From a virus, in UHGV virus genome UHGV-0060500: DNA of 52,459 bases. One strand, given 5' to 3'. Positions 12,631 to 30,169 of this stretch are shown in pieces. A program made the translations under genes and the position numbers. Numbering within the stretch: position 1 is the stretch's first letter; the number at the start of each line of letters is the position of its first letter. The notes under the pieces were generated by a model. That model did no database searches and was not told the DNA's origin. It saw only the letters and a list, made by a program, of their open reading frames with translations.

Positions 12631-12855
12631 ATGATTGAAGAAAAAGAAGTAGACAAGGAAATTCCTGACGGTTGTGATGAGCTTATTTGTTTTGACGGCG
12701 GCCTGTATGAGTTCGAAACGTCTGCAGGGTGGCACGATAAATGGCCTAAGCCTACTCGCCAGGAATTAAGCGACCGTAAATCATTCGGCGAAGATGCCGA
12801 ACGGCTGGCTAATAACAAATGGCTTGATAAGTTAATTGCGGAGGGTGGCAAATGA
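12631..12855 (+). CDS. Hypothetical protein (74 aa)
   Basis: ORF with coupled stop/start to the next gene. Confidence 0.4.
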   Translation: MIEEKEVDKEIPDGCDELICFDGGLYEFETSAGWHDKWPKPTRQELSDRKSFGEDAERLANNKWLDKLIAEGGK

Positions 12856-12965
12856 GCTTTGCAAAAATTGCCGCATTGCTTGCGGCTTTATCTATCGCCG
12901 TGCTGTATCTCAGTGTATCTCTTTATATCACGGTAGCGATCATTAAACTCATTACTAACATGTGA
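12852..12965 (+). CDS. Small membrane protein (37 aa)
   Basis: MSFAKIAALLAALSIAVLYLSVSLYITVAIIKLITNM; ATGA overlap with the upstream stop. Confidence 0.35.
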   Translation: MSFAKIAALLAALSIAVLYLSVSLYITVAIIKLITNM

Positions 12966-12973
12966 GGCCAATC

Positions 12974-13093
12974 ATGAAAGTCGGTAAGGATATTGTGACT
13001 GTCGCGTTTTGCATTATTTGCTTCCTGTTTGTGGTTGTTTCTTGTGGCGCATTTGCTGCGTTGGTTAGCTTTATTTTTAGAGGGTTGCCGTGA
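12974..13093 (+). CDS. Small membrane protein (39 aa)
   Basis: MKVGKDIVTVAFCIICFLFVVVSCGAFAALVSFIFRGLP; follows the previous small membrane ORF. Confidence 0.35.
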   Translation: MKVGKDIVTVAFCIICFLFVVVSCGAFAALVSFIFRGLP

Positions 13094-25560: not shown

Positions 25561-25586
25561 ACCCGGCCCAGTGCCGGGTTTTTGCT
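25561..25586 (+). terminator. Hairpin plus T-tract immediately upstream of the lysis cassette (candidate late-operon terminator/antitermination site)
   Basis: ACCCGGCCCAGTGCCGGGT followed by TTTTGCTTTG, 18 bp before the holin start. Confidence 0.4.
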
Positions 25587-25603
25587 TTGTTGGAGGAAAA
25601 TCT

Positions 25604-25804
25604 ATGTTCGACAGAATACGGGAGGCGTGTGCGTATGTGACTGGGGCCGTAACTGCTTTTTTCGGCGCGATAACCATCAATGACATTGCCGTCTTTGTGG
25701 GTATTTTATCAACCGTAGGCACATTTGCCGTTAATTATTACTTCAAATCACAGGAGAACAAGCGAGCGCAAGAGGAACACGACGCGCGAATGGGGAATAA
25801 GTAA
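25604..25804 (+). CDS. Class II holin (pinholin-like)
   Basis: 66 aa, two TM helices then charged C-terminus (YFKSQENKRAQEEHDARMGNK); followed by a SAR endolysin; SD GGAGG. Confidence 0.7.
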   Translation: MFDRIREACAYVTGAVTAFFGAITINDIAVFVGILSTVGTFAVNYYFKSQENKRAQEEHDARMGNK

Positions 25805-26296
25805 ATGATTAGCCAATCGCTGAAAAACAAGATTGTTGCGGCGGCGGCTGGTGGGGCGATCGCTATTGCGGCGGTGATGATTAAGCCATTAGAGGGCGTG
25901 GAACACGATCCTTATCGTGATGTTGTTGGCGTATGGACTGTTTGCTACGGTCACACCGGAAAAGACATCATGCTTGGGAAGACTTACACGCAATCAGAAT
26001 GCGATGCTTTGTTGAACAAAGATCTACATAAGACCGCAAAAGCGATTGACCCATATATCAAAGTCGAAATATCAGATTTTACCCGCGCTGCACTTTATTC
26101 GTTCGCCTATAACGTAGGCGCAACCAACTTCAAAACATCAACCTTATTAAAGCTACTCAATGACGGCAAGAAATCAGAGGCGTGCGCACAGCTTAAGCGC
26201 TGGGTATACGCTGGCGGTAAGAAGTGGCAAGGCCTGGTTAACCGCCGCGAGGTTGAATATGCCGTTTGCGAATGGGGTGAGAAATGGACAAGGTGA
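25805..26296 (+). CDS. SAR endolysin (lysozyme, T4-lysozyme-like catalytic triad region)
   Basis: 163 aa; N-terminal signal-anchor-release helix [17 protein letters not shown], then E...D...T catalytic spacing ([16 protein letters not shown]). Confidence 0.8.
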
Positions 26297-26754
26297 AGAC
26301 GTTAATCATCGCCGTTGTTGTTTGCATTATTGCCGGACTAACCGCCGTAACGTGTTATTACCAGGGTGAGGCGGCAAGGTTACAGGAAGAAGTCACGGTG
26401 ACGAAAGGCGCACTGAAGACAGCAAGTAACACTATTCAGCAGATGAAGGAGCGAAACGCCGAACTGTCAAAACTTGATAAGAGGTATCACGATGAGATTA
26501 AAGCTATCAGATCTGACATTGCCGATCTGCGCACTGGCATTGATAACGGCACTATCAGGCTGCGCGTCAACGCAATACCGGTGCGAGTGTCTGACCCCAC
26601 CGGAACCGCCAGCGCCATTGATGGAGCCGCCTGTAGACTCACTCCCGACGCTGAATCGGCTTATCTATCCCTCAGAGAACAACTAAAAACGAAAGACGCT
26701 CAGATTACTGGTCTTCAGGACTACATCAAAACTCAGTGCTTACGCAAAGAATAA
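26284..26754 (+). CDS. Rz: Rz-like i-spanin
   Basis: 156 aa; N-terminal TM helix, coiled-coil periplasmic domain; embedded Rz1-like ORF in another frame. Confidence 0.75.
26474..26686 (+). CDS. Rz1: Rz1-like o-spanin lipoprotein (embedded in Rz); start probably the Met at 26492
   Basis: Lipobox LSGC followed by a Pro-rich sequence, entirely inside the Rz gene in the +1 frame. Confidence 0.7.
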   Translation: MIRGITMRLKLSDLTLPICALALITALSGCASTQYRCECLTPPEPPAPLMEPPVDSLPTLNRLIYPSENN

Positions 26755-27032
26755 CAGCGCGTGGACGTGTCGCCGTTTCTGCCAGCCAGCCATAACCGGG
26801 CCAATCCTTCCCGCGAGCGACGGCGGAAATTCAAAAACACGTAATACCGGATCAACAGTCCCATTAACAGGTCAGGCGCTACCTGGGTAGAAGAAAGCGC
26901 CATCCACCAATTTTATAAAATTCTGTAAACGGTACTCACACAGCGCCGTTTTCAGTGTTTTATAGCTGTTTTCACTCCCTGCGGTGTCCAGTTTTGCGGG
27001 GGTTATATTTTTCAGGATAGAGGAATATTCTG

Positions 27033-27575
27033 ATGGCTAAGGGTAAAGGCATTAAGTTGCCTCAATTCAAAGTCCCGCTCTTTGAGCATACAACAGTTTT
27101 CTTCTGCCCGACTCGCGACATGTTCTATGAATTTTGCGAAAAGGCAGGGATCCCAATCGAACCTGATTTCGAACTGGCTGGAGGATTGACGCTTACTTGC
27201 ACTGGTGAGAAAGGCGGTAACTTCTACGTGATCGCAGTATTCGACAATGAGTTGGGTACGCTGGTACATGAATGCGCCCACACTACATTCCACGTCTTAA
27301 GTGATGTAGGCGTCGTGGCGACCACTGATCCAATTCATCCGGCAAACGAGACTTACGCTTACATGGTGGGCCGCATCTTTGACGCATTCTTCCCAATCCT
27401 GGCTGAATCAAACGAAGCGCAGGTTGCAGCAATGCAGGCGGCTGAAGTCGTAGAGAAGGCATTAGAACAGGCAGAACAGCCGAAGGAAGAGGAAAAGCCC
27501 GCTAAGAAAGGCAAACGCAAGCCGAAAGCAAAAGATGCGCTTGTGCCGCGTGTAATGAGCTTTAAACGAGGCTGA
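27033..27575 (+). CDS. Hypothetical protein with HExxH motif and lysine-rich acidic/basic C-terminal tail
   Basis: 180 aa; LVHECAHTTFH (HExxH) and C-terminal EQAEQPKEEEKPAKKGKRKPKAK; SD GAGGAA. Confidence 0.5.
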   Translation: MAKGKGIKLPQFKVPLFEHTTVFFCPTRDMFYEFCEKAGIPIEPDFELAGGLTLTCTGEKGGNFYVIAVFDNELGTLVHECAHTTFHVLSDVGVVATTDPIHPANETYAYMVGRIFDAFFPILAESNEAQVAAMQAAEVVEKALEQAEQPKEEEKPAKKGKRKPKAKDALVPRVMSFKRG

Positions 27576-27577
27576 TT

Positions 27578-28154
27578 ATGGACGCTTACATCATCGCCGG
27601 ATTAATTGGTATTCTGTATTTCTGGTGAGTTTTGTTATTGCCGTACTGATAACCGTAAAGAGCAAGTATTAGATGTGGTGGCAATATGATTGACCCGCTA
27701 ATTATCCTTTCTGCCTGCGTCGCTGTATGGCTGGCGATCATGATATTCATTGAAAGCTGAAGGTATCCACAATGAACGCATACGAAATGCTATTGCTGGT
27801 GGCTGTTATTACAGTTATTGCCGTAGATGTTTATCGGGAGTTTAAAAAATGAAATGGCTTGATTTCTTTTTCCTGATCGTTGCGATTGTTCTCACTATGA
27901 CCGCGCTTGCTCAATAGGTGAAAGCATGAACGCTATTGATATTATGTTGATCGTGTGTACCGTTGCATTAGTTATTATTGGGGTGATTATCAATGTCTGA
28001 TGGTGATTTCTTAATCATGGCTATATGCACGCTGTTAACTGTTATTGTTTTCTTCGCGTAAAGGTAAACAATGAAAGAATTATTCGATTGGTTGGAAGTA
28101 TTAACATACTGTGCAAGTTTTGTTGCTTGCGTATATATCATCAATAAATATTGA
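27578..28154 (+). other. Array of seven tandem micro-ORFs encoding 16-27 aa hydrophobic peptides (27578-27628, 27686-27760, 27772-27852, 27849-27917, 27926-28000, 27993-28061, 28071-28154)
   Basis: Each ATG is preceded by an SD-like purine run; peptides MDAYIIAGLIGILYFW, MIDPLIILSACVAVWLAIMIFIES, MNAYEMLLLVAVITVIAVDVYREFKK, MKWLDFFFLIVAIVLTMTALAQ, MNAIDIMLIVCTVALVIIGVIINV, MSDGDFLIMAICTLLTVIVFFA, MKELFDWLEVLTYCASFVACVYIINKY. Confidence 0.4.
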
Positions 28155-28164
28155 GAGGTGAATT

Positions 28165-28680
28165 ATGGCCCGCACTAAAAAGGCAAAAGCTGACGACAAA
28201 AAGCCAGCCGCAAAAAGGGTGGGCCGTCCGCATGGTTATACCGAAGAAAAGGCGTTAGAAATCTGTGAACTGGTGGCGGACGGTCAGAGCGTTAACAAAA
28301 TTTCGAAGATGCCTGGTATGCCTACCCGTTCAACAATCCTGAAATGGTTTAGAGACGTGCCGGAATTCTCGGACATGTACATGCGCGCGAAGGAAATCGG
28401 CTTCGAGGTATTAGCTGATGAGATCCTCGATATAGCTGATGATGCTAAGAACGTTGATAAAGACCAACTACGCCGCCACCAATTAATGATTGAAACGCGT
28501 AAATGGTTATTGGCTAAGCTACAACCGCGCAAATACGGCGAACGCGTCACACAGGAGATCGTCGGTAACAAGGAAGAAGCACCCGTCCAGGTAGAAGTAA
28601 ATCAGACTACTGTCCTTGAGATAATCGATAACCTGAATAAGGAGTACAATACTCATGGAGACTGCGACGACAAAGATTGA
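28165..28680 (+). CDS. Terminase small subunit
   Basis: 171 aa; N-terminal basic HTH-like region (GRPHGYTEEKALEICELVADGQSVNKISKMPGMPTRSTI), immediately upstream of and overlapping the large subunit. Confidence 0.75.
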   Translation: MARTKKAKADDKKPAAKRVGRPHGYTEEKALEICELVADGQSVNKISKMPGMPTRSTILKWFRDVPEFSDMYMRAKEIGFEVLADEILDIADDAKNVDKDQLRRHQLMIETRKWLLAKLQPRKYGERVTQEIVGNKEEAPVQVEVNQTTVLEIIDNLNKEYNTHGDCDDKD

Positions 28681-30169
28681 CAGAGAGGTTCTAAGGGGGT
28701 TGTGTGTTAAAGGTTGTGCTCCCAAAGACATATCAGCACCTTTGTTTTTTAGTTCCTACTTTTATAAGCAACAGGTTGGCAAGGACTTTTTGGTTGGGCG
28801 TCATCACAGAATAATTGCCGATACGCTACAACGAGTTATTAATGGTGAAATCACCAGGTTGATAATCAACATCCCACCGGGCTATGGCAAAACAATGATT
28901 GCCACAATTCACATGATGGCCCGCTGCCTCGCAATAGAACCCCGCACCAGATTCCTGCATGTATCGTATTCACACGGACTCGCCTTGCTTAATTCCTCAG
29001 AGACAAGAAACATAATCACGATGCCGCAATATCAGGAATTGTGGCCTATGCAAATGCGCAACGATTCGAACGCGAAAAACCTGTGGTGGACCACTCAGGG
29101 TGGCGGCGTGTATGCGACGTCATCGCTTGGACAGGTGACAGGGTTCCGCGCCGGGTACATGGAACCTGGGTTTAACGGCGCAATGATTATTGATGACCCC
29201 CTGAAACCAGCTGACGCTTATTCTGATGTGGTGCGAAAGCAGGTTAATACCAATTACAACGACACGCTTTCTTCGCGCCTGGCTGTGCAAACAACGCCAG
29301 TGATCGTCATCATGCAGCGTATCCACTACGATGATTTATCCGGCTACCTGTTACGTGGCGGTAGTGGTGAGAAATGGCATCACCTTTGCCTGCCAGTGAA
29401 GATCGACAACAGTCTTGACTATTGGGATCTGTACCCGGAAAACAAATTCGCTATTCCTGTTCCTCACAACCTGCCGGATGGCTGGCTATGGTTGCATAAG
29501 CATAGTGATAAAGATGAATCAACTCTTAAATCACATCGCCGAACATTCGAAGCTCAATATATGCAGTGTCCGCGCAAGTTCGATCAAGAGGGCGCATTGT
29601 GGACTGAAGCGATGATAACCGCCGCGCACATGATGCAGATAACGCAGGAGAAAATTCGCACGGTGATAGCCATCGACCCGGCGACAACATCATCTGATGA
29701 GTCAGACGAAACAGGGATTGTAGCCTGTTCCGCTTATGGTGGTGGCAAGAATGCTCAGTATTCAGTAGACGGTGACTACTCAGGCCGCATGTCACCTAAT
29801 GACTGGGCGCAAGCAGCAATGAACGCCTACAACATCCATGAAGCTGACGCGATGGTTATCGAAACCAACCAGGGTGGTGATATGGCAGAGGCCACACTAC
29901 GCAATGCAGGATTTAAGGGCCGCATTGTTAAGGTGCACGCAAGCAAGGGTAAATTTGCCCGCGCCGAACCAATATCTGCATTGTATGCACAGGGTAGGGT
30001 AGCCCACACTGGCAGCCTGTACACGCTGGAAAATCAAATGATGGAATATGTGCCAGCCACCGCTAAAAAATCCCCTGACCGTATGGATGCTATGGTATGG
30101 GGTATCACTGAACTAAGCCAGCCACAGGCGATGGGCCTCATGTTACCTAAGCGCCTGCGAGGGTTTTAA
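28655..30169 (+). CDS. Terminase large subunit
   Basis: 504 aa; Walker A-like PPGYGKTM, ATPase then nuclease domain arrangement. Confidence 0.85.
   Translation: METATTKIDREVLRGLCVKGCAPKDISAPLFFSSYFYKQQVGKDFLVGRHHRIIADTLQRVINGEITRLIINIPPGYGKTMIATIHMMARCLAIEPRTRFLHVSYSHGLALLNSSETRNIITMPQYQELWPMQMRNDSNAKNLWWTTQGGGVYATSSLGQVTGFRAGYMEPGFNGAMIIDDPLKPADAYSDVVRKQVNTNYNDTLSSRLAVQTTPVIVIMQRIHYDDLSGYLLRGGSGEKWHHLCLPVKIDNSLDYWDLYPENKFAIPVPHNLPDGWLWLHKHSDKDESTLKSHRRTFEAQYMQCPRKFDQEGALWTEAMITAAHMMQITQEKIRTVIAIDPATTSSDESDETGIVACSAYGGGKNAQYSVDGDYSGRMSPNDWAQAAMNAYNIHEADAMVIETNQGGDMAEATLRNAGFKGRIVKVHASKGKFARAEPISALYAQGRVAHTGSLYTLENQMMEYVPATAKKSPDRMDAMVWGITELSQPQAMGLMLPKRLRGF

Follow-up and report, generated by a model that had tools for sequence, protein, structure and literature searches.

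A tandem array of putative single-helix membrane peptide genes upstream of terS in mEp021/mEpimmI-type temperate coliphages

Small membrane peptides and the array upstream of terS

Small hydrophobic phage proteins as such are a known kind, and tandem loci for very small hydrophobic peptides have been described in E. coli for the type I toxin systems ibs-sib, ldr-rdl, and zor-orz (Fozo et al. 2010, PMC2887945). The present analysis concerns UHGV virus genome UHGV-0060500, an E. coli prophage given as a stretch of 52,459 nucleotides (nt) that is called the window throughout, in which a run of micro-open reading frames (micro-ORFs) for short hydrophobic peptides lies on the plus strand between a gene for a protein with an HExxH motif and terS. 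The pattern of substitutions among related loci gives high confidence that these micro-ORFs code for proteins and evolve under purifying selection, and from this evolutionary record it may be inferred that they are translated. A coupled array of this kind, with up to 13 genes of 20-35 codons, conservation across a phage group, and next to no annotation, has to our knowledge not been described.

Like the array, the type I toxin loci encode very small (19-35 amino acids, aa) single-helix hydrophobic peptides, present as side-by-side copies that gene callers usually miss. However, each type I toxin forms its own transcription unit with an antisense small RNA (sRNA), and the repeat units are hundreds of nt long, whereas the genes of the array, which come from different families and lie within the late operon of a phage, abut or overlap on what would be one sense transcript, and sequence scans gave no antisense signal above chance. 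The likeness to type I toxins that was drawn by an earlier reading of the letters without database searches (hereafter the sequence-only reading) holds for size and hydrophobicity and fails for the architecture of the locus.

Accessory membrane proteins are also encoded in phage lysis regions, as with LydA-E of P1, LysA/B of P2, RI of T4, and the runs of small transmembrane (TM) proteins beside actinobacteriophage lysis genes. LydA-E, LysA/B, RI, and their like share with the array a small size, a membrane character, a place close to the holin and endolysin genes in the late region, the presence of several per phage, and an accessory and variable nature. They typically have 60-150 aa, often at least two TM domains, and charged C-termini, whereas the array peptides have 22-35 aa and one helix, occur up to 13 in a row, are separated from the lysis cassette by another gene, and have no holin profile match. 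The possibility that the array peptides are themselves the holin or antiholin of the cassette is not supported: the peptides of the window have no PHROG or Pfam match, and the cassette has its own class II holin.

Among enterobacterial proteins, the small inner-membrane regulators KdpF, AcrZ, MgtS, CydX, and YohP have 27-49 aa and a single TM segment and, where their action is known, bind a larger membrane protein. The array peptides resemble KdpF, AcrZ, MgtS, and similar proteins in having fewer than 50 aa, a single TM helix, and a comparable hydrophobicity profile. These regulators are encoded by single genes that are usually co-operonic or co-regulated with their target, whereas the array is a multi-family tandem in a phage; no NCBIfam, Pfam, or PDB similarity to them was found, and no polytopic membrane protein is encoded nearby. 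In layout, the array has counterparts in psm-alpha1-4 of S. aureus and aurABCD of aureocin A70, which, like the array, are consecutive leaderless ORFs of 20-35 codons, each with its own Shine-Dalgarno (SD) sequence and without a signal peptide. Their products are amphipathic and cationic and act on the membranes of other cells, whereas the array peptides are uniformly hydrophobic and neutral or acidic. Finally, a 2022 survey by Fremin et al. in Cell Rep is said to have predicted, with the backing of conservation, phage small-gene families of fewer than 50 codons, many with predicted TM helices; likened by description only, the array genes belong to the same general class.

The micro-ORFs of the window

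Seven consecutive ATG ORFs of 16, 24, 26, 22, 24, 22, and 27 codons had been reported by the sequence-only reading, and the sequence and the ORF list bear out all seven, on the plus strand, along with both overlaps (ATGA at 27849-27852 and 8 nt at 27993-28000) and the 10 nt between the last stop codon and terS. The distance from the HExxH gene to the first ATG, which had been given as 3 bp, needs correction, as the ATG begins 2 nt after the stop codon. In terms of the peptide families that emerge from the comparison of relatives, the order in the window is 4 (broken), 0, 1, 2, 6, 7, 3:

27578..27628, plus strand: micro-ORF 1, the truncated 5' part of a family-4 gene, 16 codons, MDAYIIAGLIGILYFW; 1-bp deletion at ~27611/27612
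27613..27672, plus strand: rest of the family-4 gene, out of frame, SVFLVSFVIAVLITVKSKY and stop codon; an intact 31-aa gene in relatives
27686..27760, plus strand: family 0, 24 aa, MIDPLIILSACVAVWLAIMIFIES; core gene, 65/68 loci, peptide near-invariant
27772..27852, plus strand: family 1, 26 aa, MNAYEMLLLVAVITVIAVDVYREFKK; core gene, 65/68 loci, basic C-tail
27849..27917, plus strand: family 2, 22 aa, MKWLDFFFLIVAIVLTMTALAQ; core gene, 63/68 loci; ATGA overlap with family 1
27926..28000, plus strand: family 6, 24 aa, MNAIDIMLIVCTVALVIIGVIINV; accessory gene, 44 loci
27993..28061, plus strand: family 7, 22 aa, MSDGDFLIMAICTLLTVIVFFA; accessory gene, 42 loci; 8-nt overlap with family 6
28071..28154, plus strand: family 3, 27 aa, MKELFDWLEVLTYCASFVACVYIINKY; 53 loci; final membrane-peptide gene before terS wherever present

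The SD-like run that had been noted before each ATG is present at all seven, as a purine-rich core 4-8 nt upstream (in gene order GAGG, GGTGG, AAGGT, GGGAG, TAGGTGA, GGGGTGA, and AAGGT). The stop codon of the HExxH gene falls within the SD of the first micro-gene, and the SD of family 6 (TAGGTGA) includes the stop codon of the gene before it. When ATG ORFs of 16-50 codons with an SD-like core and a hydrophobic 13-residue window were counted, 7 were found in the 605-nt stretch that holds the array, whereas 2000 dinucleotide-preserving shuffles gave 0.17 on average (standard deviation 0.42, at most 3). On the minus strand of this stretch the count is 0, and over the rest of the plus strand (~52 kb) it is 6.

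Alignment with four relatives indicates that micro-ORF 1 is not a native 16-codon gene; rather, it is a 31-codon family member cut by a 1-bp deletion, with one T lost from an ATTTCT run at ~27611/27612. The native family-4 gene has the consensus MDxYIIAGLIGxSVFLVGFxIAVLITVKSKY, and its remaining 19 codons and stop can still be read at 27613-27672 in the next frame. The window thus contains six intact micro-genes and one broken one. The deletion, which is one of just two frameshift candidates in ~500 gene copies, may reflect a real pseudogene or a homopolymer sequencing error.

Evidence that the micro-ORFs are genes

The segment has matches in seven sequenced mEp021/mEpimmI coliphages and in prophages of 34 of 5,426 complete E. 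coli genomes. For the comparison, 68 related loci were assembled, consisting of 22 annotated loci, 45 from IMG/VR that were found via terS, and 1 contig reached through a HExxH homologue of 62% identity; one additional IMG/VR contig was found by a degenerate-codon pattern for the family 0 peptide. A run of SD-preceded hydrophobic micro-ORFs on the plus strand occupies the same slot in 68/68 loci and in the extra contig.

Within each family all distinct DNA alleles were compared, changes were scored against the consensus, and a binomial test was applied. For the first 23 loci, pooled variable sites at the first, second, and third codon positions number 102:55:214; over the full 68 they number 150:86:303. 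The synonymous share of changes is 55% versus 28% expected in the first 23 loci (p = 2e-27) and 52% versus 27% in the full set (p = 1e-32); when the same alignments are read in the +1 or +2 frame, it is 23% or 14%. Codon periodicity and synonymous excess are thus seen in the called frames only, in keeping with the earlier contention that these are real genes and not chance ORFs.

The excess is also evident family by family. The core families 0, 1, and 2 have 17, 22, and 19 synonymous changes versus 10, 16, and 15 non-synonymous ones (p = 5e-5, 2e-4, and 4e-4, respectively), and the 25 DNA alleles of family 0 encode 14 peptide alleles. The same number of DNA alleles in family 3 yields 7 peptide alleles (p = 7e-4), with 12 synonymous changes versus 1 non-synonymous change in the first 23 loci. 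Families 4 (p = 6e-4) and 6 (26 versus 22, p = 2e-4) behave likewise; family 7, with 17 synonymous versus 25 non-synonymous changes (p = 0.044), has the weakest single-family signal. Frame-breaking indels or a loss of the frames in related phages, to which the sequence-only reading had itself pointed as the observation that would speak against it, are rare: start-codon loss or frameshift affects ~6 of ~500 gene copies (about 1%), and the claim survives. The idea of a decayed gene for a polytopic membrane protein was ruled out, given that every unit starts with an SD and ATG of its own, that the units are spread over all three frames, and that they are conserved as units across the 68 loci.

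The diversity at third positions is 0.062 in family 0, whereas the other micro-genes have 0.17-0.29 and the two flanking genes, for the HExxH protein and terS, 0.26-0.27; family 0 is about four-fold below its neighbours. This low synonymous diversity suggests an extra constraint at the DNA or RNA level, or a recent sweep. The predicted RNA fold of the family 0 segment is no more stable than those of shuffles (z = +1.24).

Variation of the array among relatives

Across 54 distinct arrays, the number of genes ranges from 3 to 13 with a median of 9, and coding sequence covers 0.89 of the spacer. About 94% of junctions have a gap of -8, -4, or +1 to +18 nt. The segment between the HExxH gene and terS varies 3.5-fold in length, from 318 to 1154 nt, and the shortest holds 3 genes. 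The peptides cluster into ~18 recurrent families, which keep a fixed colinear order and vary by presence and absence. Families 0, 1, and 2 are present in 63-65 of the 68 loci, and in most of the loci the membrane-peptide gene closest to terS is family 3 or a variant of it. The family 0 peptide is identical in the relative whose HExxH protein has just 62% identity. With 3 micro-genes in one contig and 5 in the viable phage mEp021, the genes look accessory, and non-essentiality would be expected.

The junctions indicate how genes may come and go. The sequence of the 18 nt before a gene varies with the identity of the gene that precedes it, and the first gene of the array always starts 2 nt after the HExxH stop codon, regardless of its family. 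For example, the window has a family 0 to family 1 junction, whereas locus L001 has family 0 to family 8 and family 9 to family 1. As the upstream sequence goes with the preceding gene, the breakpoints lie at the ATG, and whole-gene gain and loss therefore occurs at start codons, which keeps every frame and every coupling junction. The route would most simply be unequal crossing-over between similar 5' ends (e.g. ATGAAC...).

Two departures from the usual gene content were observed. In the spacer of L061 (2155-3000), an in-frame fusion of families 4 and 0 makes a 60-aa two-helix ORF (MDDYIIAGLIG...KRWLEGKMIDPLVILSL...FIES); adjacent peptides apparently tolerate joining, and they may pair in the membrane. 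In three other loci (L014 2443-2589, L016 2613-2756, and L017 2483-2626) a gene for a soluble acidic protein of 47-48 aa (MNDEELKIADEIRKALDSAENNET...) lies between the last membrane-peptide gene and terS.

Properties of the peptides and searches for homologues

The peptides of the window have a mean Eisenberg hydrophobicity of 0.29-0.75, a hydrophobic moment of 0.02-0.25, apolar runs of 13-19 residues, a net charge of -2 to 0, and an acidic residue among the first six positions; several contain small-xxx-small helix-packing motifs. By these measures their profile is that of predicted membrane-spanning helices, uniformly hydrophobic, and not that of amphipathic lytic peptides. An N-out/C-in topology, inferred from the positive-inside rule and what is known of N-tail translocation, fits the acidic N-tail and the occasional basic C-tail, as in family 1, which ends in YREFKK.

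The sequence-only reading had taken the peptides to be paralogous. This is borne out for a number of family pairs, whose similarity exceeds that of composition-matched shuffles by z = 5-10 (families 1/16, z 10; 10/13, z 8.5; 2/5, z about 6; 7/5K and 1/11, z 5), and does not extend to all families. A start of the form M-x-x-x-[D/E] followed by a hydrophobic run is common to many of them.

The peptides had also been described as assignable to no known family, and this stands: matches are absent from the curated libraries and from phages outside the group. In particular, profile searches with the window peptides against PHROGs, Pfam, NCBIfam, and PADLOC (Pfam and NCBIfam matches being considered at E <= 1) and phmmer against PDB sequences returned noise only. 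The sole contact with a holin PHROG, at E = 0.04, is made by family 11, a 47-aa peptide that is absent from the window. No homologue outside the mEpimmI group was found by 'distant' blastn or by tblastn of the concatenated peptides, since among 50,697 phage records only seven mEpimmI phages were hit; a degenerate-codon scan for family 0 in IMG/VR gave the same phage group only, and a scan of GTDB species representatives with a terS alignment gave no relatives. A collection of 15 billion proteins lacks five of the window's six intact peptides. The region is not mentioned in PMC11893012, the sole paper found on this phage group, and neither the peptide strings nor any account of such genes in a coupled array of as many as 13 was found in the searchable literature.

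Existing annotation is equally silent. No hydrophobic micro-gene of less than 50 aa is annotated by the Prokaryotic Genome Annotation Pipeline (PGAP), and records based on Phanotate have longer, merged, or wrong-frame ORFs in place of the micro-genes. Just two spacer genes are annotated by PGAP, the soluble acidic 47-48-aa gene and a 67-aa call in L021.

If the peptides are made, standard annotation overlooks 3-13 functional genes in each genome of a well-sampled group of gut coliphages, a concrete case of small-protein coding capacity hidden in a supposedly intergenic 0.3-1.1 kb. The array would then offer a compact and tractable system, as mEp021 has 5 genes and grows on K-12, and it could show what free-standing TM helices do in infection and how mini-genes originate, duplicate, and are lost.

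Proposed role and alternatives

The genes are on the same strand throughout the array, and coupled junctions follow one another without a break from the HExxH stop codon to the start of terS. A scan for promoters and terminators found no terminator-like hairpin between the HExxH gene and terL, and promoter-like sites in the array are at chance level (6 found versus 7.4 expected from shuffles). The minus strand of the array has two weak promoter-like matches, also at chance level, and no terminator-like site. An Rfam search over 26000-29000 (E <= 1) gave two sub-threshold chance matches only and no sRNA family, and a search for DNA repeats gave just 12-18-nt matches in two or three copies, nothing like terS-binding repeats.

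The reading favoured here, with a probability of about 0.55, is that the array is a lineage-specific multigene set of single-pass inner-membrane peptides of 22-35 aa, which would be expressed late, translated by coupling, and active through helix-helix contacts, with lysis timing or the state of the membrane as the leading guess at the target. The array would be part of the late operon of a temperate coliphage of the mEp021/mEpimmI type, between the HExxH-protein gene and terS, and would be co-transcribed with the lysis and packaging genes; translation would occur late in infection by coupling or re-initiation. Small membrane proteins of E. coli are known to insert post-translationally. Peptides of 22-27 residues are finished before they leave the ribosome tunnel, and therefore the array peptides, too short for co-translational targeting, would have to insert in this manner, with the acidic N-tail probably facing out and a basic C-tail, where there is one, facing in. 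From within the membrane they would then work via the bilayer or via TM helix-helix contacts with other membrane proteins, and might tune when or how the class II holin and the signal-anchor-release (SAR)-type endolysin fire, or the energetic state of the membrane. Such a modulation of terminal membrane events, whether of lysis timing or of membrane state, is tentatively ranked first among the possible functions because expression would be late and because a pinholin-type holin with a SAR-type endolysin forms a system that is sensitive to membrane energisation. Interference with membrane proteins of the host or of rival phages is placed second, as a rather doubtful candidate.

The neighbourhood supports the lysis-stage function in that the class II holin, the SAR-like endolysin, and Rz are all encoded upstream of the array. 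Several observations weigh against it. The link to lysis is positional only, and between Rz and the array lie a 277-nt gap and the HExxH gene; the earlier placement of the array between the lysis cassette and terS is accurate on the terS side and loose on the other. The holin is nearly invariant while the content of the array varies, with no sign of co-variation, and no homology to a holin, an antiholin, or a known small membrane regulator was found in the PHROG, Pfam, NCBIfam, PADLOC, and PDB searches. Furthermore, the ratio of the mean diversity at positions 1 and 2 to that at position 3 is 0.25-0.54 in the micro-genes versus 0.13-0.18 in the HExxH gene and terS. The constraint is thus weaker than on the flanking genes, and therefore part of it may simply be to stay hydrophobic; the weaker constraint also fits TM helices that tolerate exchanges among I, L, V, and F.

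In the interference explanation, the peptides serve superinfection exclusion or anti-defence, each helix blocking a particular inner-membrane protein (e.g. the DNA-entry channel of a rival or a membrane abortive-infection effector), and gene content shifts in an arms race. The strong presence/absence variation, with ~18 families and 3-13 genes per phage, the diversification of families by duplication, and the helix-packing motifs of several peptides are in line with such a function, and in HK620, which has a related terS, the slot between the lysis genes and terS holds unrelated ordinary accessory genes, hkbK-N, of 59-165 aa. However, no promoter above chance level is present for expression in the lysogen, the late-operon position suggests expression just shortly before lysis, the core families 0, 1, 2, and 3 are near-invariant rather than diversifying, and the PADLOC search gave no match. 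A bolder version, slightly more doubtful again, would have the array be a combinatorial battery of free-standing TM 'interferer' helices, the membrane-phase counterpart of anti-defence islands. Each 22-35-aa peptide would dock on a specific membrane protein of the host or of a rival phage, for instance on the pore of an abortive-infection system, a channel for DNA entry, or the pinholin of the phage itself, and unequal crossing-over between paralogous gene starts would allow rapid gain and loss of specificity.

The remaining explanations give the peptides another function or none. It is unlikely that the ORFs serve coupling only, that is, that they keep ribosomes on the mRNA, prevent Rho-dependent polarity, and hand ribosomes from the HExxH gene to terS, with peptides that are irrelevant and hydrophobic simply since the DNA is T-rich. 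The unbroken chain of junctions, a GC content of 35-41% with a negative AT skew (T excess) across the array, as expected of hydrophobic codons, and the comparatively weak amino-acid selection are consistent with this idea; yet the synonymous excess and codon periodicity indicate constraint on the amino-acid sequence beyond openness of the frame, the peptides of families 0 and 3 are near-invariant over 25 DNA alleles, a 318-nt spacer with 3 genes argues that no fixed length or count is required, and coupling would be better served by a short intergenic region than by as many as 13 genes. Very unlikely, although compatible with a coding role, is a segment that is mainly a pac/cos packaging site bound by terS, with incidental ORFs. 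Its position directly upstream of terS and the low third-position diversity of family 0, a hint of extra constraint on the DNA, would suit such a site, but the substitutions carry a strong coding signal, repeated motifs like those bound by terS and long repeats are absent, length and content vary 3.5-fold between functional phages, and the adjacent 277-nt non-coding block is the better conserved candidate for a cis-acting site. Moreover, terS is here of the Sf6 type, a headful family in which pac sites lie in or near terS itself. Type I toxin-like peptides in the style of Ibs, Ldr, ShoB, or Hok, controlled by antisense RNA and acting in prophage maintenance or abortive infection, would account for the size and hydrophobicity, which resemble those of IbsC, and such loci are often tandemly repeated (PMC2887945). 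This explanation is still less probable: gaps of -8 to +18 nt leave no space for a promoter, 5' untranslated region, or antisense unit per gene; minus-strand signals in the array do not exceed chance; Rfam gave no sRNA and Pfam and NCBIfam no toxin family; and most window peptides, with their net charge of -2 to 0, lack the typical charged or aromatic C-tail. Just as improbable is the release of the peptides at lysis to attack the membranes of neighbouring cells, in the manner of multi-peptide leaderless bacteriocins or phenol-soluble modulins (PSMs). The layout is that of psm-alpha and aureocin A70, and lysis would free the peptides without an exporter, but they are uniformly hydrophobic, with a moment of 0.02-0.25 compared to about 0.44 for PSM-alpha3, and neutral or acidic instead of cationic, and the neighbouring genes (for the HExxH protein, terS, terL, and portal) include none for immunity or transport.

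Neighbouring genes

The genes around the array were identified from the ORFs and from profile searches, which also identified the portal gene:

25571-25804: class II holin with two TM segments, 66-77 aa, directly upstream of the endolysin; Pfam Phage_holin_2_3 in the homologue from relative L068
25805-26296: endolysin with an N-terminal SAR-like hydrophobic stretch; profile search
26284-26754: Rz spanin; profile search
27033..27575, plus strand: HExxH (zincin-like) protein, 180 aa; ORF with a match to phrog_1365 (unknown function), E 8e-31
28165..28680, plus strand: terS, Sf6-type terminase small subunit; phrog_1482, E 5e-52; starts 10 nt after the array
28655-30169: terL; profile search

A homologue of terS bears the Pfam domain Sf6_terminase, and the protein has 35% identity to terS of Sf6 and HK620. 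The HExxH protein has 121 homologues, and those with a named organism are all from E. coli except for one protein of a Caudoviricetes metagenome-assembled genome, whose source label is 'PolyVal metallopeptidase superfamily'. The HExxH motif is invariant among the homologues, and the C-terminal third of the protein is lysine-rich and varies in length. Searches of Pfam, NCBIfam, and PDB with this protein gave no match, and an AlphaFold2 model built on a shallow 12-sequence alignment (mean predicted local distance difference test score, pLDDT, 48.8) is too poor for use.

Approximately 820 nt separate the array from Rz, an interval filled by the HExxH gene and the 277-nt non-coding gap (26755-27032). 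This gap was found in 67/67 related loci searched, with 90-98.5% identity to the window (median 94.3%), and is a candidate cis element, regulatory or pac. In mEp021 it carries a 58-nt insertion, roughly at the position of a terminator annotated in the mEp021 record. Within the lysis cassette itself, an embedded ORF for an Rz1-like lipoprotein is visible in relative L075. A strong terminator-like hairpin, with a 7-bp stem, 6 GC pairs, and a T-run, is located at 25561-25579, where the holin ORF has its 5' end, and includes the first candidate start of that ORF (GTG 25571); the position of the hairpin ahead of the holin recalls that of tR' ahead of S in lambda.

Genes of the HNH type occur at differing positions near the array in three relatives. 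In mEp013 (L006 999-1484) an annotated HNH endonuclease gene separates the HExxH gene from the array, in L068 (2252-2773) a Pfam HNH_3 gene lies between the endolysin gene and Rz, and in L075 (4729-5232, reverse-complement coordinates) terS is followed, ahead of terL, by an unclassified 167-aa ORF, which is read as HNH-like. The pattern looks like traffic of mobile homing endonucleases around the array.

Finally, two adjacent SD-preceded small ORFs, each with a single TM segment, are found in the early region of the window, downstream of an SSB-like gene (SSB, the protein that binds single-stranded DNA), and may be further unannotated membrane mini-genes:

12852-12965, plus strand: small TM ORF, 37 aa, MSFAKIAALLAALSIAVLYLSVSLYITVAIIKLITNM
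12974-13093, plus strand: small TM ORF, 39 aa, MKVGKDIVTVAFCIICFLFVVVSCGAFAALVSFIFRGLP

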